This document shows, one piece after another, positions 10,683 through 60,442 of a stretch of 64,000 nucleotides of DNA. The stretch covers positions 1 through 64,000 of IMG/VR virus record IMGVR_UViG_3300043539_002606, one strand, 5' to 3'. The translations under genes were made by a program, and so were the position numbers. How positions within the stretch are numbered: the first letter of the stretch is position 1; every line of letters starts with the position of its first letter. The notes under the pieces were generated by a model. The model saw nothing but the letters and a program-made list of their open reading frames with translations, did no database searches and was not told where the DNA came from. Origin of the DNA: a virus.

Positions 10683-10690
10683 TATTTATA
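10683..10690 (-). promoter_or_regulatory. Late promoter
   Basis: TATAAATA 7 nt before the ATG at 10675. Confidence 0.75.
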
Positions 10691-19966: not shown

Positions 19967-21048
19967 AGACTATCAAGGGCTTGGGCTTCAACATAAAGTT
20001 CTTGCAATAATGTTTTAATTCGATCTCTGTCAAGATCTGTTTCAACAGCATCTACATAGTTATTAAGCAAACTAACTGTGTCTGTTGCAACTGTAGATTC
20101 ATCGATCGTTACATTGCTTGCATTATATTCATCAAAATTTTCAACTGTCTTTACTTCAAATGGATTTGTTGCTTGTATTGCATCAACAAATTTGTCAAAG
20201 AGATAGGGATTCTTTTTGACTCTCACAACTAGCTTGACATAGGTCGATGTTAATGCACTAAAATCATATTCAGCGAGATCAGCATAGATGTTATCATCTG
20301 CATCGCTATCATCATAAACAAGCTTATTGAAAAGAGTAATGGGATTACGAATTGCAGTTAGCTCACGAGTCTCACTATCAAGAATATGAAAATATTTTGG
20401 ATCATCACAATCTGCCCATGTTAATTCATAGGGTGTGCCAAGATAGTGTATATTTCCTTTGTCACTTTTTGTATGATAGTGACCACTCAACACACTCTCA
20501 TAGCGAGAGAAAAGTTCTGCGTTCATGCCATGACTTGCAGCTGGCATGCCTTTCATCATCTCAAAGCCAGCAAGCTCTAGATGTGCACCAAGTATTGGAG
20601 CTTGGGCAGTTTGTATAAATTCAATGCTGCTAGCATAATTCTCTGGATTAATCCATGGCAGCAGTGCAATCTTTAATCCATCATAATCCAAAATTGTTGG
20701 ACTCATATGCAGCTTAATAACATCGCTATGCAACATGACAATCTCTTGCAAGCTGCAGACATCGTTTGTGCTCTTGTAATAGACATCATGGTTGCCAGGA
20801 ATAATATTCATCGTCATGCCATATTCACGAAGCTTTTCAATGAAATTGGCTTTGTTTGCAGCCAATGCTTTGATGTTCGTAAATTTGCGATGATCATAAT
20901 AATCACCTAGATGCAGGATTTCAGTGATGCCTTGTTTTTTACATTCAGGAAAAAATACTTCATCATAGAATCTCTTTTCATTGTTAATAAAGACATCGCT
21001 GCCATTTTTGATCCCGCTATGGGTATCTGTGATAATAGCTATTTTCAT
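19963..21048 (-). CDS. gp47: Mre11/SbcD-like recombination nuclease subunit
   Basis: ITDTH, HLGD, PGNHD, AHLEL and SGHYH motifs. Confidence 0.97.
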   Translation of the reverse strand: MKIAIITDTHSGIKNGSDVFINNEKRFYDEVFFPECKKQGITEILHLGDYYDHRKFTNIKALAANKANFIEKLREYGMTMNIIPGNHDVYYKSTNDVCSLQEIVMLHSDVIKLHMSPTILDYDGLKIALLPWINPENYASSIEFIQTAQAPILGAHLELAGFEMMKGMPAASHGMNAELFSRYESVLSGHYHTKSDKGNIHYLGTPYELTWADCDDPKYFHILDSETRELTAIRNPITLFNKLVYDDSDADDNIYADLAEYDFSALTSTYVKLVVRVKKNPYLFDKFVDAIQATNPFEVKTVENFDEYNASNVTIDESTVATDTVSLLNNYVDAVETDLDRDRIKTLLQELYVEAQALDSL

Positions 21049-21689
21049 AGTGTTGCAAAGAAATCACTCAATGGACCAAGTTCTGGTGTTTTTTTAGCTG
21101 GTCGACCTCTTTTCTTTTTGGTCGGCAATGGCTCATGATCCTTAACGCTGCAAAGATCATCATTATAAAAGTCTCCATCAAGTTTATGACGAGCTCGTTC
21201 AATCATGCTCTCTCCGATCTGACCGCTGTCGTCACCAAAGTCTGCAAATGAATCAAGACTTGAACCTTCAATAAGTTTCTGCTTAATCTCGGTTTGTTTC
21301 TTTTCTTTTTCAATGCGTCTCAAAAAGGCATAATAACTGATTTGGGTAAAATAGCTAAATGCATTTGGTGTGCCAGTTCGAGTAGGAGCATCAATATTAA
21401 AGTTATTGACAACCTTAATGCAATTCTCAACTGCATCCATAACCATATCATCTCGATAGCTATAGTTCATGAAGTTGGGACTTCTTGATAAGCCATTGGC
21501 AATCTGATAAATCCCCAATGCAATATAGTCTGTAACTACTGGATCCTCAATGCCGCTTGCTCGGGCAGTTTTAACGCTTTGAACATATGAGGCCAAAGCC
21601 AAACTAAGTTCTTTATTGTTAATATAATCGGATCCTTCTTTTCTTTTACGTGTACTTTTTACTTTTTTTGGTTGATCTTCTTCAATCAT
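21045..21689 (-). CDS. gp55: Late-transcription sigma factor (probable start MIEED at 21689)
   Basis: YINNKEL, NFMNYSYRDDMVMDAVENC and NAFSYFTQISYYAFLRRIEKEKK motifs. Confidence 0.96.
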   Translation of the reverse strand: MIEEDQPKKVKSTRKRKEGSDYINNKELSLALASYVQSVKTARASGIEDPVVTDYIALGIYQIANGLSRSPNFMNYSYRDDMVMDAVENCIKVVNNFNIDAPTRTGTPNAFSYFTQISYYAFLRRIEKEKKQTEIKQKLIEGSSLDSFADFGDDSGQIGESMIERARHKLDGDFYNDDLCSVKDHEPLPTKKKRGRPAKKTPELGPLSDFFATL

Positions 21690-21696
21690 GCTATCT

Positions 21697-21725
21697 AGTA
21701 TACCACAAAACAAAAGTTTGTAAAC
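21697..21725 (-). promoter_or_regulatory. Early promoter for gp55-47-46
   Basis: GTTTAC-17 nt (ending TGG)-TATACT; ATG 7 nt downstream. Confidence 0.7.
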
Positions 21726-21747
21726 AATTATTTTTATGAATTTTTTG

Positions 21748-21776
21748 GTTTACAAACAATCAGATTCATGTATAAT
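21748..21776 (+). promoter_or_regulatory. Antisense-oriented sigma70-type promoter, copy 1
   Basis: GTTTAC-17 nt-TATAAT, divergent from the gp55 promoter. Confidence 0.75.
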
Positions 21777-21815
21777 AGGTGCCATGCACCTTCGGCTGAA
21801 TGTAATGAAGCCGAT
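21768..21815 (+). repeat. 48-bp exact repeat, copy 1 (-10 box plus two hairpins)
   Basis: ATGTATAATAGGTGCCATGCACCTTCGGCTGAATGTAATGAAGCCGAT, identical to 35162-35209. Confidence 0.95.
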
Positions 21816-21879
21816 AGATGTTGCTGATTGTTTGCTCTTAAAATATCTATAATGATATTATAATCTCATAAGAGCATGA

Positions 21880-22893
21880 TTATTCTTTAATCTTTCGAAA
21901 GCCAAGTAAGGTATGTTTTACTGCCATCCACATGTCTAGATACTTATAGTTGCTTAATCTGCCTGTAAACATTACATTCTTTTCTTCGGCTTTAAGCTTT
22001 TCATATTGGGAGTATTGACGCTGTGCATCTCCCCATGGTATTGGATAATAAGGTATATCATTCTCTCTTGCCTCTTTTGGCAATTCGCTTGTAATGACAG
22101 TCAAGCCTTTATGATCTGGGTTAAAATAGCTATGATCATAGATTCTTGTATATGGCACATCAGCTCTATTTTGATTGACAATAAATGTTTCTTGTTTTGG
22201 AACAAATGCCTTATGATGAAATTCCAAACTACGATATGGCAATCGTCCATAGCAATAGTCATAATATTCATCAATTTTTCCAGTATAGACCAATAGATCT
22301 CGAGGAGCAGATTTCCATGCATCACCATCGGAGTTTATATGCACAGTTATATTCTCATGATCAAGCATGCTGGCAAACATAGCGCTATAGCCATGCTTTG
22401 GCAAGCACTGATATTTTTGATGTCGAAACCATGTTGGATTTTCATCATCTGCTGTTTGAGGTATGCGATTTGTAATGGTTTGTGGGATTTCTTCAAATGG
22501 CACACCCCATTGTTTTTCGCTATATTCCTTAAAGAAATATTCTCGAATCTCCTCTGGCTCAAGTTCTCGACCCAGTGCTGCAACTGTTGCCCGTGAATAT
22601 GGCAATGGCACAACTCCCAATCGAGTATCTCCTAATGGTCTTAATTCAAATGGAATCCATTCAGTGAATCGACTCAAAAATTCAAAAACCTCTTCATCAT
22701 CAGTATGAAAAATATGAGGACCATAGGTGTGTACTCTTACGTGACCCATTAACTGATCTGCACAATTGCCTCCAATATGATCACGTGATTCATATATTGT
22801 TACGTTCGCGCCAGCATCAGCAAAGCATCGAGCAGCTGTGCAGCCACTTAGGCCTGCTCCAACCACTACTATATTTTTATTAACATATTCCAT
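21880..22893 (-). CDS. glf: UDP-galactopyranose mutase (FAD-dependent pyranose-to-furanose mutase)
   Basis: VVGAGLSG, IGGNC, HTYGPHIFHT, YSEKQWG, YTGKID, LPYRSL, YTRI, PYYP and GRLSNYKYLDM motifs. Confidence 0.93.
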   Translation of the reverse strand: MEYVNKNIVVVGAGLSGCTAARCFADAGANVTIYESRDHIGGNCADQLMGHVRVHTYGPHIFHTDDEEVFEFLSRFTEWIPFELRPLGDTRLGVVPLPYSRATVAALGRELEPEEIREYFFKEYSEKQWGVPFEEIPQTITNRIPQTADDENPTWFRHQKYQCLPKHGYSAMFASMLDHENITVHINSDGDAWKSAPRDLLVYTGKIDEYYDYCYGRLPYRSLEFHHKAFVPKQETFIVNQNRADVPYTRIYDHSYFNPDHKGLTVITSELPKEARENDIPYYPIPWGDAQRQYSQYEKLKAEEKNVMFTGRLSNYKYLDMWMAVKHTLLGFRKIKE

Positions 22894-23557
22894 TGTCTTT
22901 TGCATATCTATAGACTAATTCTTCTTGATATTTTGTATCTGTATATGTTGCAATAATTTCATCGAGATTCTCATGAAATGCCTTTGCTATTTTCTTCATA
23001 TTCTGAAGATCACCACAATAAAAATTATCAACACCAATTACTGATCTGCTTAATCTTGGATGTCTAAAGACGAACTCTCTGGTAAAAATTAATTTATTGC
23101 ATATTGACATATTTGCTTGACATATTGGTCGGGTGAAATAGTCCCAACGTGTATTAATGATTCTAAAATAATCATCTGGTATTTTCTCTAATCCGCTGTG
23201 TATGCCAGCCCACATATTTTTCCAACTTATTTTTGGTATTTTACTTTGACAAATTTGACCATCAATCGTTTGATGTAGTTTTAATTTGCTATCATCAAGA
23301 ATCGTGATATTTTTAATAATATCCTTATGCTCAATAAAATAGTGTTCAATAAGATTTGGAGTAACAATCAATTTTGCACTATTATTGACTTCGCGATAGC
23401 TGCTATCAGCTTCAGCATATTTCCAACTTTGACAATAGACGTGTAAATCAACATCGCGTTTGCTTCTTAAATTTTGTACAAATTCCTTTAGACTTGGACT
23501 AAATAAGCCATCACGAATATGTCCTCGAATATAAAGGGCTATTTTGTGTTTGTTCAT
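22880..23557 (-). CDS. Hypothetical protein overlapping glf and uvsW; possibly a nucleotide-sugar-dependent transferase
   Basis: IALYIRGHIR start, INTRWD and GVDNFY motifs. The function is inferred from context only. Confidence 0.6.
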   Translation of the reverse strand: MNKHKIALYIRGHIRDGLFSPSLKEFVQNLRSKRDVDLHVYCQSWKYAEADSSYREVNNSAKLIVTPNLIEHYFIEHKDIIKNITILDDSKLKLHQTIDGQICQSKIPKISWKNMWAGIHSGLEKIPDDYFRIINTRWDYFTRPICQANMSICNKLIFTREFVFRHPRLSRSVIGVDNFYCGDLQNMKKIAKAFHENLDEIIATYTDTKYQEELVYRYAKDNGIC

Positions 23558-25038
23558 ATCTTAACTGTATATATTTTGTAATTAAAGCCTTCTTTATCAT
23601 AGATAGCAACACGCTCTGCTCCATGCTTTAGGCTGAAGTTTTTCTTTTTCTTCCATGAGAAGTTATCGCTAATATCATAGACAGTGGTAGCTTGACCATT
23701 ATCGCTCAATCGCAGGCCACGACCAATGCTTTGTAGAATTTTAATTTGGCTTTTGGTTGGTGCTGCAAAAATAATATTATGCAAATTGCGTATATTAATG
23801 CCTGTGCTAAAAGTAGCGCTGCTCGCAACAATAACTGCATTTGACTCGCTCTCTACTTCTCCACGTACTTTTTCGCGAACATCTGTATCTGTTTCACCAC
23901 TGACATAATAGATCTTACGATCTGGCTCCGCTGCAACCAATGCAGCATGCAACGGCTTGCCATGTTTTACTACATAGTTGAAAATTACAAGTGTATTGCC
24001 TTTGAGGCCTCGAGCAAGATTAACAATAAACCTATTGCGGGCAGAATGAGAAATAATCACATCAATCTCGCTAGCATAATCAAGCTTGCTTACTGCCTTT
24101 TTAACTTCATCATCATAATCAAGCACGATGCAGTGTATATTCAACTCTGCAAGTGTCTTGCTCTCCATAAGAGCCTTTGTTGTTGTGACTTTAAATATTG
24201 GCCCAAAATGTCCAACAAGCACACGCTCATTGCATTTGCTGCCATCAAGTGTGCCCGTTGTGCCAATGCGATAGCTTGCATTGGTCAGTGTATTCATAAT
24301 TGTATTGAGACTCTTTGCTTTAAACTGATGTGCTTCATCCCCAACAATCATGCCATATTTTTTGAACCAACTTTCAGGACATGTGATTGCACTCTGCCAT
24401 GTTGTGATTGTCACTCGTGTGCCAGCAACTTCTTTTTCTTTGCCGCTATAGATGCGATGCACTAGTTTTTCAGAATCAAATTCATTATCATGAGTGCTAT
24501 AGTCTGCAAAATCGCTGGCTAGCTGTTCAACAAGACTGGTCGTTGGCACAACAACTAGTGCCTTTTCAGTCTCATGATCAATATACCAACGCAGCAGCAT
24601 ATAAATGATCAAGCTCTTGCCGCTGCCAGTTGGACTCAAGACAAGTGTTCTGCCGCTTGTCAAGCTTTGTACAACTGCTTCAACCTGATAATCATGTGGT
24701 GTTATGCTATTTCCACGAGCAGATAGATTTAATTTTGAAATATAGTCAATCACCTCTTGACGAGATGGCAAAGGAGCTCGCAAGCTGTCATCATAATCAA
24801 CTGCATAGCCTCGTTCTTTTGCAAATTTTGCTAGCTCACCAATCAAGCCATAAGGCAGTGTATGCGATCTTAAATTAAACAATCTGATTTTGCCATCCCA
24901 GAGTTTATTACGATATGCAGGAATAAACTTATAGCCTTCTGCATAAAACGTAAAATGCTCACCAAGCTCCATGAGTGCACCAGTATCGGCGCTTCTCACA
25001 AAGATCTCTGCTTCATTCTTTTTACTTAGTTTAAACAC
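23554..25038 (-). CDS. uvsW: SF2 DNA/RNA-DNA helicase (probable GTG start at 25038)
   Basis: WDGKIRLF, SPTGSGKS, DEAH, GTTGT and QSIGRGLR motifs. Confidence 0.96.
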   Translation of the reverse strand: MFKLSKKNEAEIFVRSADTGALMELGEHFTFYAEGYKFIPAYRNKLWDGKIRLFNLRSHTLPYGLIGELAKFAKERGYAVDYDDSLRAPLPSRQEVIDYISKLNLSARGNSITPHDYQVEAVVQSLTSGRTLVLSPTGSGKSLIIYMLLRWYIDHETEKALVVVPTTSLVEQLASDFADYSTHDNEFDSEKLVHRIYSGKEKEVAGTRVTITTWQSAITCPESWFKKYGMIVGDEAHQFKAKSLNTIMNTLTNASYRIGTTGTLDGSKCNERVLVGHFGPIFKVTTTKALMESKTLAELNIHCIVLDYDDEVKKAVSKLDYASEIDVIISHSARNRFIVNLARGLKGNTLVIFNYVVKHGKPLHAALVAAEPDRKIYYVSGETDTDVREKVRGEVESESNAVIVASSATFSTGINIRNLHNIIFAAPTKSQIKILQSIGRGLRLSDNGQATTVYDISDNFSWKKKKNFSLKHGAERVAIYDKEGFNYKIYTVKI

Positions 25039-29248: not shown

Positions 29249-29278
29249 CTCTGATCTTTATTTATATAAAATCACTTT

Positions 29279-37368: not shown

Positions 37369-38118
37369 TTATCCAACAAAAAAGTCAACAGGATTGCTAT
37401 AGAAAAGATCAAATCTTTCTTTAAGTTCTTTGAGATCTGTGACAGCATCATCATAGATCTGACGACCACTAATTGTCACACCGCCTGGTAATTGCATGCC
37501 TTCGAACTTGCTAAGATTCTGACCCCATTGTTTTTTAATCATTAGTGTCAGCAGCTCTTTAAGTGCCATGTCATTATAAACATCTGGATAGCCATTAGGA
37601 TCGACGCTCGTATAGCATTCAATAATAATAAAGTCACCTACTTTTGTTTTATCTCGCAATAGACCATGAAATTGAAGAGTGTCCATGTGACGAGCATAGC
37701 TTAATTGACCAGTATGACCTGTGATAATATTCTGCACAAGACTAATATATTGACTTGTCATCTCATAGTTAATAATGCCACCTGGGTTTCTCAGACCATA
37801 TACGTCATTAAGAAACATTTGATATTTAGCGCTAAACATACTCGCGCTGCTCGTATCATTAAAACTAAGTATTCGAGTGACACTTAAGATATTCTCTGGC
37901 AAATTGCTAATCTTATTGTCATCGAGATCAGATTGTGTAATCTCATGCTTAAGAAGTGTGCGTACAACTGCGTCGCTGTGATATTCTTGCCAATATTGAA
38001 TTGCTTCATCAATGCGATCCTCTAATTGATCGTCATCAATATTAATCTCCATAACTGGTGCACCAAGTGCGCGCAAACAATAGTCGGCCAGTTCTTGTCT
38101 TGTACTAGGTCTTGCCAT
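37369..38118 (-). CDS. gp13: Neck protein
   Basis: YCLRALGAPVMEINI and KKQWGQNLSKFEGMQLPGGV motifs; TATAAATA at 38124-38131. Confidence 0.96.
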   Translation of the reverse strand: MARPSTRQELADYCLRALGAPVMEINIDDDQLEDRIDEAIQYWQEYHSDAVVRTLLKHEITQSDLDDNKISNLPENILSVTRILSFNDTSSASMFSAKYQMFLNDVYGLRNPGGIINYEMTSQYISLVQNIITGHTGQLSYARHMDTLQFHGLLRDKTKVGDFIIIECYTSVDPNGYPDVYNDMALKELLTLMIKKQWGQNLSKFEGMQLPGGVTISGRQIYDDAVTDLKELKERFDLFYSNPVDFFVG

Positions 38119-38147
38119 AAGACTATTTATATGTTAAATAAGATCAT

Positions 38148-38744
38148 TCAATTCTTTTCTTTTTTACATATGTAGGGCAAGCTAATGACTACGCTTAGCA
38201 TTGCAGCACTATATAAAAAATTCTTGAATCGTTCTAAAGATTGTGTAATCTTTACAGCATTTGAATTTACATAAGACGTCTTGATATTTAGAATCTCATT
38301 TATGGCAGAGACTGTTGGATCAGTTAAGCTATACATTTCTTGCACAACATTTGATTTGTTAACGCTAATATCTTCAGTCAACACTTTATCAATAAAAAGA
38401 TCTATCTTAACGTCATTGTCTTTTATAAGCTGCATATATGCAAGTTCATCTGGCGTAGTAGTTTTAAAATATTCATTAAGCAGTTTATTTTTTTCTTCGC
38501 GCTGACTTAACAAGATCTTTTTTAAATCTTCTTTGCTTTGCATGCCATATGAAAATTTAATAATGTTATCAACTATGGTTAATCCATACCAGTCGAATAC
38601 CAGGCCGATATTTTCAACTGTTGCTTTTTGCTGTGTCAAATTATCATTTATGGTTTTCTCAACATGATTCACTGTCTTAACACCTTGAAAGACAAATCCA
38701 AGAATGATTATTGTTAAGCAAATAATAAAGGTTCTTGGTTTCAT
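38148..38744 (-). CDS. Two-TM membrane protein with a chemoreceptor-type four-helix-bundle (4HB_MCP-like) periplasmic domain and no cytoplasmic signalling domain
   Basis: N- and C-terminal hydrophobic helices around about 150 aa of helical sequence with V.D.Y...IVD...K...G..S, Y..T.TP.E and E.Y...DP motifs. Confidence 0.6.
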   Translation of the reverse strand: MKPRTFIICLTIIILGFVFQGVKTVNHVEKTINDNLTQQKATVENIGLVFDWYGLTIVDNIIKFSYGMQSKEDLKKILLSQREEKNKLLNEYFKTTTPDELAYMQLIKDNDVKIDLFIDKVLTEDISVNKSNVVQEMYSLTDPTVSAINEILNIKTSYVNSNAVKITQSLERFKNFLYSAAMLSVVISLPYICKKEKN

Positions 38745-39058
38745 CTTTTGATAAATTTTTCAGGATTGTTTTGAAATTTTTTTCCAAGCTTAACGAGGCC
38801 GTTAATAATCTCTGGACTCACTACGCCGATGATACCATATGCAATAGCTTTATACAAACTAGAAATATCTGTTTGTTCAAGAATAAACCAGGCAATACCA
38901 GATGCGATTGCTGCACTAAATATTTTCTTAAGCTGTTCAAGTAAACTAAATTTAGTATCACTTGACATTAAGCGCGCTAGCATTGCAGCGGCACCAATAA
39001 GAGGAATAATCCATCCACCTTCGATAAATTGTTTTGCTAGAGCTCTAAAGTCTTCCAT
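38741..39058 (-). CDS. Holin-like small membrane protein (about 3 TM helices, basic C-terminus)
   Basis: 105 aa with three Gly/Ala-rich hydrophobic segments and a KLGKKF...KFIKR tail; TATAAATA at 39065-39072. Confidence 0.65.
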   Translation of the reverse strand: MEDFRALAKQFIEGGWIIPLIGAAAMLARLMSSDTKFSLLEQLKKIFSAAIASGIAWFILEQTDISSLYKAIAYGIIGVVSPEIINGLVKLGKKFQNNPEKFIKR

Positions 39059-39092
39059 AAATACTATTTATAAAAATAACAATATTAAGATT

Positions 39093-39260
39093 ATGAAACG
39101 TATATCTATCAATGACAATTACAAACAGCTATTCTGGAAACTTGGTTGCGGAACAGTTGAATATATCGAAATCTATAATGAAGATGGAGATAAACTATAT
39201 TTTAGAGCCGGCTCAGGTCGGTTTCATATGTTAAGGGGGGAGCTAGCTGATTATCAATAA
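39093..39260 (+). CDS. Small hypothetical protein (55 aa); the only plausible plus-strand gene
   Basis: MKRISINDNYKQLFWKLGCGTVEYIEIYNEDGDKLYFRAGSGRFHMLRGELADYQ fills an otherwise empty gap and has an AT-rich leader. Confidence 0.5.
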   Translation: MKRISINDNYKQLFWKLGCGTVEYIEIYNEDGDKLYFRAGSGRFHMLRGELADYQ

Positions 39261-39630: not shown

Positions 39631-40071
39631 TTATGCTGTTATATCGCTGGTCTCTTCAGTAATAATTTCAGGCTCTGGAGTTATAACCTCTTCAATCACT
39701 TGTGGCTCAACAATAATTTCAGGCTCTGGAGTTATAACCTCTTTTACGATTAAAGAAACAACTCCATCAACAATTTCAAACTCTCGACCTGCAACAGCAA
39801 TTGCTGTGACTCCTTCGCTATTTGCTCTGCTCTTAATTTCATTTAATGCTGTAGCACTATATTCATGATTAGTGAATAACGACAAGAGTTGATTGTTGTC
39901 ATATAGCTTTTGTAGAACCGCTGTCAATCTATCGTCAGGTAGACTCCAAAAAACTCGGTGAGAGTTATTGAGAGAATCTATAGCAGCATTAACAGCATTC
40001 AAAAATGTTGTTGCTGATGCTTCTATACTGGCGATGTCAATATCTATTTGTTGTTTTGTTATTAAGTTCAT
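39631..40071 (-). CDS. Hypothetical fibre-associated protein with an EVITPEPEII repeat
   Basis: ORF directly after the fibre gene; 32-bp direct repeat at 39661-39692 and 39712-39743. Confidence 0.7.
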   Translation of the reverse strand: MNLITKQQIDIDIASIEASATTFLNAVNAAIDSLNNSHRVFWSLPDDRLTAVLQKLYDNNQLLSLFTNHEYSATALNEIKSRANSEGVTAIAVAGREFEIVDGVVSLIVKEVITPEPEIIVEPQVIEEVITPEPEIITEETSDITA

Positions 40072-45655: not shown

Positions 45656-45713
45656 GTTTCTATTTATAAGATATAAACTTCAACAGAACGTGAGCTGTTT
45701 ATATCAACATTAA

Positions 45714-47901: not shown

Positions 47902-47922
47902 AATTCTATTTATATGATAATG

Positions 47923-60415: not shown

Positions 60416-60442
60416 GGTTATTTGTATTTATATTGATTTGTT

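Follow-up and report, generated by a model that had tools for sequence, protein, structure and literature searches.

Lysis timing sets the burst size and fitness of a phage, and to our knowledge there are few ways in which a phage can adjust lysis to external cues; the classic example is T4 lysis inhibition. The T4 holin T has one transmembrane helix and a large periplasmic domain, which is bound by the antiholin RI. RI is reported to relay a periplasmic superinfection signal (PMC8385771, PMC11413866). In phage P1, LydB is an experimentally shown antagonist of the holin LydA and delays LydA-dependent lysis (PMC9025707, PMC7692668). The mechanism of LydB is unknown, and the protein was reported to lack transmembrane domains and to have no homologues of known function (PMC9025707). 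For Campylobacter phages, an antiholin has been predicted on the strength of the same 4-bp gene overlap as in P1 lydA/lydB (PMC7692668). Here we describe a holin gene and the gene that overlaps its end, which encodes a 198-residue membrane protein that we call the partner. Both lie in a 64,000-nucleotide stretch (the window), positions 1 to 64,000 of an IMG/VR viral contig of 83.6 kb (IMGVR_UViG_3300043539_002606) that is estimated to hold ~46% of a genome. The source is a freshwater T4-like phage.

We found that the periplasmic part of the partner is a four-helix bundle (4HB) sensor module of the chemoreceptor and histidine kinase type, truncated right after its second transmembrane helix (TM2), and that it is encoded directly behind a LydA-type holin. 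We put at about 0.5 the probability that the partner is an accessory, antiholin-like regulator that acts on the holin through its transmembrane hairpin, with the 4HB as its input domain. It is most likely that the partner sets lysis timing, and it may respond to a signal. The features of the locus are listed here in the direction of transcription.

39065..39072, minus strand: T4-type late promoter motif TATAAATA, ending 6 nt upstream of the holin ATG
38741..39058, minus strand: gene for a 105-residue holin of the LydA or holin superfamily III type, class-I-like (PF16083, PHROG, AlphaFold2 and BFVD)
38741..38744, minus strand: ATGA overlap of 4 bp, partner ATG over holin TGA; the plus strand reads tcat
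38148..38744, minus strand: whole gene, with stop, for the 198-residue TM1-4HB-TM2 holin partner (open reading frame, AlphaFold2 and homology)
38670..38732, minus strand: first transmembrane helix (TM1, ~residues 5-25), with MKPR before it (hydropathy; the AlphaFold2 helix 3-65 is continuous with alpha1)
38223..38669, minus strand: periplasmic four-helix bundle (~residues 26-174), with alpha1 to residue 65, alpha2 at 71-93, alpha3 at 98-123 and alpha4 from 130
38166..38222, minus strand: TM2 (~residues 175-193), continuous with alpha4 (AlphaFold2; aligns with TM2 of hairpin-only variants)
38148-38165, minus strand: KKEKN and the stop codon, the protein ending 5 residues past TM2
38124..38131, minus strand: following copy of the late promoter motif, 5 nt ahead of the gp13-like gene, marking the downstream end of the two-gene unit
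37369-38118, minus strand: gp13-like neck gene (phrog_211 match), starting 29 nt past the partner stop

A first-pass annotation, made from the letters of the window, had described one late promoter ahead of two genes joined by an ATGA overlap, and we find both as described: TATAAATA stands 6 nt before the holin ATG, the next copy is the one that precedes the gp13-like gene, and none lies between the holin and partner genes. The number of TATAAATA motifs in the window is not above chance (11, against 6.8 +/- 2.5 in shuffled sequences). Ten of the 11 are on the coding strand, however, and 8 of the 11 sit 5-10 nt upstream of the start of an open reading frame (ORF). It is therefore the placement of the motif, not its number, that supports T4-type late promoters, and the same placement argues that the pair is a late unit without an internal promoter motif. 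The minus-strand motifs found 5-10 nt before starts are at 1778-1785, 10683-10690, 29259-29266, 38124-38131, 39065-39072, 45661-45668, 47907-47914 and 60425-60432. If transcription starts ~6 nt downstream of the motif, as it does in T4, such late mRNAs would have little or no leader, and a Shine-Dalgarno sequence would not fit in. The ATGA overlap would couple translation of the partner to that of the holin. An overlap of 4 bp is seen in 30 of the 33 non-identical loci that have a second gene, and one of 1 bp in locus L001.

Hydrophobic segments fall at residues ~1-25 and 175-194 of the partner, and the order of transmembrane helix, helical domain and transmembrane helix given in the first-pass annotation, with the protein stopping soon after TM2, stands. 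TM1 carries neither a lipobox nor an AXA cleavage site; its Cys9, in the context FIIC, is absent from the relatives P0004 and P0005. Basic residues at both ends of the protein (MKPR and KKEKN, with longer basic tails in relatives) suggest by the positive-inside rule that both termini would face the cytoplasm (N-in/C-in). The AlphaFold2 model of the partner, built with a six-sequence alignment, has a predicted local distance difference test score (pLDDT) of 85 and helices at residues 3-65, 71-93, 98-123 and 130-193. This is the layout of the 4HB_MCP_1 type, in which the bundle lies between two transmembrane helices, alpha1 is continuous with TM1, and alpha4 is continuous with TM2. In a Foldseek search of the PDB the top matches of the partner were 4HB ligand-binding domains (LBDs), namely Vc1313-LBD (TM-score 0.70), MCP2201, QseE, NarQ, Adeh_2942 and PcaY, with weak E-values (best 0.025) and target-normalised TM-scores of up to 0.73. 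All-against-all alignment with VIA gave a similar set: MCP2201-LBD came highest (Z 14.4), followed by LytS-N, then McpN (12.9), the Adeh_2942 kinase sensor (12.7), PcaY (12.5) and NarQ (12.1).

The family to which the partner belongs comprises 29 relatives from an exhaustive search of 1.84 billion representatives. All but one of them are 91-255 residues long; the exception, P0033 with 406 residues, was left out of the family alignment (A2), which holds 26 of the 29. Six of these 26 match the Pfam model PF12729 (4HB_MCP_1), for which the curated cut-off is 27 bits; P0023 (30.3 bits) and P0026 (30.1 bits) lie above it with near-full model coverage, and P0027 reaches 26.6 bits. When the window clade was aligned with the PF12729-passing clade, hhalign returned a probability of 98.7% (E 1.7e-16) over the full length. 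A language-model search (Atlas) independently put the partner next to two clusters, a viral one with 95% PF12729 and a bacterial one of the 4HB_MCP/TarH type. We judge the predicted link to the 4HB_MCP_1 class to be stronger by sequence than by fold. The 4HB assignment made in the first-pass annotation thus holds by fold and topology and by homology to phage proteins that pass PF12729, and falls short in one respect, namely that the window protein itself has no Pfam match. The annotation had also noted the lack of a HAMP or signalling domain, and we detected no HAMP or other output domain (MA, HisKA/HATPase or GGDEF) in the partner or in the 26 aligned members. A search for longer, fused relatives of P0023 found none, which is weak evidence, and neither the exhaustive search nor the search for longer proteins returned a bacterial full-length relative. 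The family profile matched only designed helical proteins among PDB sequences (E ~1e-3), an uninformative result, and a locus search seeded with P0005 gave no related locus.

The motifs on which the first-pass annotation had drawn are present and count among the best-conserved positions of the family: V49.D51.Y53...I57V58D59...K63...G67..S70, then Y92..T95....E100, and E136.Y138...D142P143. The conserved stretches are FDWYG (49-54), E100, EMY..TDP (136-143) and N149. Residues F50, D51, W52, Y53, E100 and N149 are invariant in the alignment of the closer clade (A4), and D51, Y53, E100 and N149 are at least 90% conserved in A2. The conservation of these four residues, in a domain that otherwise evolves fast, is the sole hint that the bundle may bind a ligand.

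The first gene of the pair, called holin-like in the first-pass annotation, encodes a holin-like protein of the LydA type, with hole formation predicted from the gene context of its relatives. It matches the LydA holin model PF16083 with 26.0 bits (E 9.9e-6) over model positions 11-76 of 78, and the same model is matched by 30 of 37 holin homologues (best E 1.6e-6); close homologues bear precomputed PF16083 labels. It also matches two PHROG holin families (phrog_6384, holin, 1.4e-5), and its fold matches in BFVD are mostly annotated 'Holin' or 'LydA holin'. The AlphaFold2 model (pLDDT 83) consists of three hydrophobic helices at residues 17-32, 39-61 and 67-97 and ends in a basic, Lys/Arg-rich C-terminus. 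From this model and the positive-inside rule we infer an N-out/C-in topology, with the acidic EQTD loop between the second and third helices outside. In metagenomes, more than 500 proteins are close homologues of the holin, and the contigs that encode them are up to 171 kb long. The holin is essentially absent from 185,579 bacterial species genomes, where the single match was a 1.8-kb contig in a metagenome-assembled genome of Acidimicrobiaceae, too short to indicate a host. When the single sequence of either P1 LydA or the holin of Pseudomonas phage SM1 was aligned with the holin alignment by hhalign, the result was not significant; such single-sequence templates carry little signal, and the Pfam model is the better test.

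We next asked how tightly the two genes are linked. Loci were gathered both via the partner, in four clades, and via the holin, which gave 80 loci. Members of the partner family always lie directly behind a LydA-like holin in the four divergent clades, nearly always with the 4-bp overlap, and the conservation of the gene pair, proposed earlier as a check, therefore takes the form of strict co-occurrence. A hidden Markov model of the family, run over all 3,352 ORFs from 85 loci, matched only at the ORF that starts at the holin stop. The fourth clade retains the pair though its neighbours are not neck genes. Because the linkage holds in these other genome contexts, the pair moves as a module. 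The pair persists down to ~20% identity between partners and ~46% between holins, and in each of the 91 comparisons between pairs, divergence is greater for the partner than for its holin (mean identity ~28% vs 57%). In two loci, L003 and L004, the arrangement is a lysis cassette: three small membrane proteins come before the pair, and after it come a signal-peptide protein and then an Amidase_2 endolysin (PF01510, 2.4e-11). These cassettes span 4371-7811 in L003 and 4357-7823 in L004, with membrane proteins of 110, 92 and 201 residues, the holin, the 4HB partner, a 144-residue protein and the endolysin. The 144-residue protein has a cleavable-looking signal peptide and is possibly an outer-membrane beta-barrel. 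We recognised no spanin in the L003 and L004 cassettes.

The position behind the holin is polymorphic. In a survey of 48 non-identical holin loci, the second gene was distributed as follows.

Long TM-4HB-TM form (198-239 residues): 14 of 48 loci
Intermediate form with two transmembrane helices (79-80 residues): 2 of 48 loci
Bare hairpin of two transmembrane helices (49-57 residues): 15 of 48 loci
Basic peptide of 41 residues: 2 of 48 loci
No partner: 15 of 48 loci, of which 13 have no ORF and two (L054, L070) have an unrelated gene

Both helices of the hairpins align with TM1 and TM2 of the long form, and are in part almost identical to them (e.g. ALCLSLC.G..IRE). On the tree of the holins the long form occurs in at least four or five places, the deepest branch included, and identical holin proteins are found paired either with a long partner or with a hairpin. 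A comparison of L073, which has a hairpin, with L077, which has the long form, is instructive: the flanks are 94% and 92% identical, and similarity is lost from exactly the partner ATG to ~8 nt before the stop; this is the replacement of a cassette rather than a simple internal deletion. The partner gene is an accessory to the holin and is swappable, and the membrane hairpin appears to be the persistent core to which the periplasmic bundle is added as an optional module. The 41-residue peptide (L009 4315-4440, and the same position in L010) is restricted to one holin subclade; it begins with a short hydrophobic segment, ends in a strongly basic tail, and is a third type of occupant of this position.

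How might the partner act on the holin? We propose that the two genes would form a late-expressed lysis-control module, in which the partner would be the cognate inner-membrane protein of the holin. The partner would insert as an N-in/C-in hairpin of TM1 and TM2, with a bundle of ~150 residues in the periplasm. Inside the membrane, the hairpin would engage the holin and determine when it triggers, most likely delaying it as an antiholin does; the delaying direction is probable by analogy with LydB. As in Tar and NarQ, TM2 would be displaced relative to TM1 according to the state of the 4HB, be it occupied by a ligand, dimerised or in contact with a periplasmic signal, and this displacement would alter the hold of the partner on the holin. 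Because the holin exposes only ~14 + 7 residues to the periplasm, about 21 in all, and the conserved motifs of the 4HB lie in the membrane-distal half of the bundle, contact with the holin would have to be intramembrane or juxtamembrane. The presence of bare hairpins in the partner position, together with the failure of our searches to return a bacterial full-length relative, likewise points to an action on the holin at the level of the membrane. A bolder version of this scheme is a single-protein, signal-gated lysis switch, in which a sensor module without an output domain passes a periplasmic ligand, a superinfection or a host-state signal through the hairpin to the holin. Burst timing of abundant lake phages would then depend on their chemical or viral surroundings, and populations would toggle it by swapping the cassette among sensor, hairpin and nothing. 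We regard this version as possible, if on the doubtful side.

Alternatively, the partner could regulate or stabilise the holin constitutively, without any sensing, and the 4HB could be a bulky dimerising spacer that, for example, hinders holin packing. The fast divergence of the periplasmic domain (mean identity 27%, against 57% for the holin), the whole bundle being dropped in the hairpin forms, and the fact that we recognised no known ligand-binding motif would all be expected of such a spacer. However, the residues D51, Y53, E100 and N149 keep at least 90% conservation across clades that are only 20-25% identical, which fits a specific site better than a spacer, and the family to which the module belongs has sensing as its known role; we therefore consider a sensing-free partner unlikely. 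The hairpins of 49-57 residues also resemble class II holins, which are N-in/C-in, and several partner clades have long Lys/Arg/Pro-rich C-terminal tails, a hallmark of holins. These likenesses raise the alternative that the partner is a second holin subunit or a pinholin, a two-helix hairpin that makes a lesion or completes one together with the three-helix protein; P1, for its part, uses several holins (PMC9025707). An obligate subunit is unlikely because 15 of the 48 non-identical loci, with near-identical holins, have no partner gene (the A2 model found no long form within 4 kb in them, short hairpins being below its detection). The partner also evolves twice as fast as the holin in every one of the 91 comparisons, and a role as co-holin seems to us quite improbable.

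A role outside lysis has to be weighed as well. The partner could be a late superinfection blocker in the inner membrane, or it could act as a decoy and draw host 4HB chemoreceptors or kinases into dead heterodimers, the second being a suggestion of the first-pass annotation. The T4 protein Imm is likewise a small protein with two transmembrane helices, and the lack of an output domain in the 4HB module makes a dominant-negative heterodimer conceivable. The evidence nevertheless runs the other way: the gene is strictly coupled to the holin by 4 bp in four clades, its promoter context is that of late and not early genes, and hairpin-only forms cannot be receptor decoys. Because no bacterial full-length relative was found, there also seems to be no host receptor similar enough to pair with, and the proposal that the partner jams host receptors finds no support; we hold any role outside lysis to be very improbable. 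Least credible of all is a spanin-like or outer-membrane-disrupting component. An inner-membrane-anchored, periplasmic helical domain is loosely like an i-spanin, but an i-spanin has a single N-terminal transmembrane helix and a free periplasmic C-terminus, whereas TM2 anchors the C-terminus of the partner back in the inner membrane, and the partner therefore cannot reach an o-spanin. Nor does it have the N-terminal lipobox that a u-spanin combines with a C-terminal transmembrane helix, its Cys9 not being conserved, and phage SM1 has a separate Rz1/LysC-like gene besides the one for a protein of like fold next to its LydA holin.

Several results weigh against our preferred reading of the partner as an antiholin-like regulator with a sensor-type input domain. 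The partner itself has no Pfam match, even at E-values up to 1, and no PHROG match. Designed helical bundles are interleaved among the VIA matches at Z 12-13, and because they score nearly as high as the natural sensor domains, the fold alone is suggestive but weak evidence for a sensor domain. The PF16083 match of the holin falls just below the curated Pfam cut-off of 28.4 bits. We found no homology of the partner to LydB (hhalign 0.3%), nor to RI or any other tested antiholin. In the 83.6-kb contig, which is ~46% of the genome, we found no endolysin (Amidase_2 or Phage_lysozyme) and no spanin. A search of the contig with the Phage_holin_T model gave no match either, although this model matched no control genome and absence of a T-type holin is thus not established. 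For its lysis context we therefore depend on the relatives of this phage. Finally, the pair was found in no cultured phage: tblastn of the partner and of four holin variants against 50,697 cultured phage records gave no match, a weak negative given that these are transmembrane proteins searched with a low-complexity filter. A complex prediction for holin and partner (alignments A3 and A2) scored 0.00 in two runs that included no control pairs, and speaks neither for nor against binding.

The genomic surroundings of the pair are those of a T4-like phage. Nearly all genes of the window are on the minus strand. Directly downstream of the pair lie neck genes like those for T4 gp13 and gp14 (phrog_211 head-tail adaptor, 2.8e-40; PF11649, 1e-31), and fibre-like genes lie upstream. 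Among cultured phages, the gp13-like protein is most closely related to proteins of T4-like cyanophages and Stenotrophomonas phages (39-47% identity), and near-identical DNA is present in lake and freshwater metagenomes of more than 10 studies. One freshwater metatranscriptome holds a 152-nt contig that falls inside the partner gene (38501-38652, one mismatch); as DNA carry-over is possible and neither strand nor level is given, we do not take it as a sign of transcription. Between the holin gene and a gene for a 122-residue protein there is an ORF on the opposite strand (39086-39260, plus strand) for a protein of ~58 residues (MKRISIN...), which is conserved with few conservative changes in L001 (2813-3040, minus strand). 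It is the sole opposite-strand gene of that stretch, and its upstream region abuts the late promoter of the holin. Further upstream, 39631-40071 (minus strand) encodes a 146-residue protein downstream of an 892-residue fibre-like gene. This protein ends in two copies of an acidic motif, VITPEPEII..., and the counterpart in L001, of 134 residues, is divergent. The protein may serve fibre assembly as a factor or as a chaperone.

If the partner works as a sensor, widespread uncultured phages, freshwater T4-like and other, have a holin wired to a sensor of the type used in chemotaxis and two-component signalling, with only two membrane helices in between, and this would be the simplest known device that leads from a signal to lysis. 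It would also add a new output to the 4HB sensors, namely direct intramembrane action on another protein. Should the partner instead be a plain antiholin, it would still represent a new and abundant antiholin family for LydA-type holins. The near-identical phages that carry the sensor form, the hairpin or no partner amount to a natural experiment that lends itself to tracking in time series from lakes. The module is small enough for work in E. coli, and SM1 may be a cultured analogue.

Set against known systems, the locus shares with T4 T/RI its setting in a T4-like phage and the idea that a small helical protein acting on the holin could time lysis from the periplasm. It differs in that there is no sequence relation or common architecture, and here it is the partner, not the holin, that carries the periplasmic domain. 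The sensor modules of chemoreceptors and kinases (Tar, McpN, MCP2201, PcaY, NarX/NarQ and QseE) have the same run from TM1 into alpha1 and from alpha4 into TM2 and the same size of ~150 residues, and provide the best fold matches. Unlike them, the partner has no HAMP, kinase, MA or GGDEF output and ends 5 residues past TM2. A bacterial precedent for bundles without enzymatic output is GlnX of Corynebacterium and Mycobacterium, which has 4HB_MCP-like periplasmic bundles and is proposed to signal by contact to PknG (PMC9769921). GlnX differs from the partner in being bacterial, in having four transmembrane helices and two bundles, and in being unrelated to lysis.

Closest in cultured phages is Pseudomonas phage SM1 (Samunavirus), in which gp019, a 210-residue protein with a helical domain between two transmembrane helices, overlaps gp020, a LydA holin (PF16083, 56.4 bits). 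The SM1 gp019 model, taken from a viral fold library, matches the partner model with a Foldseek probability of 1.0 and TM-scores of 0.56-0.58. We detected no sequence homology between the two (hhalign 0.8%) and no Pfam match for gp019, and the gene order is reversed, the bundle protein standing upstream of the holin. The SM1 lysis cassette is laid out as follows.

NC_041877 (L103), 20608-23584: gp019, gp020, gp021 (162 residues, N-terminal transmembrane helix), endolysin, and an Rz1/LysC-like gene (24 bits, below cut-off)

Both gp019 and gp021 are annotated as hypothetical. SM1 shows that a protein of like fold can coexist with a spanin gene, and offers a cultured system.

The first-pass annotation knew of no described system of this kind, and our literature search turned up no account of a holin coupled to a 4HB sensor module and none that joins antiholin, four-helix bundle and periplasm. 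As regards the architecture, that statement calls for a qualification. In P1, as here, a late promoter (LPdar in P1) stands directly upstream, and a LydA-family holin gene overlaps the second gene by 4 bp. The P1 lydA/lydB arrangement differs in its second protein: LydB has 147 residues and reportedly no transmembrane domain, whereas the partner has two transmembrane helices and a 4HB module. The arrangement of holin and antiholin was thus already known from P1; the novelty of this locus lies in the kind of protein that comes second, a chemoreceptor-type sensor module.

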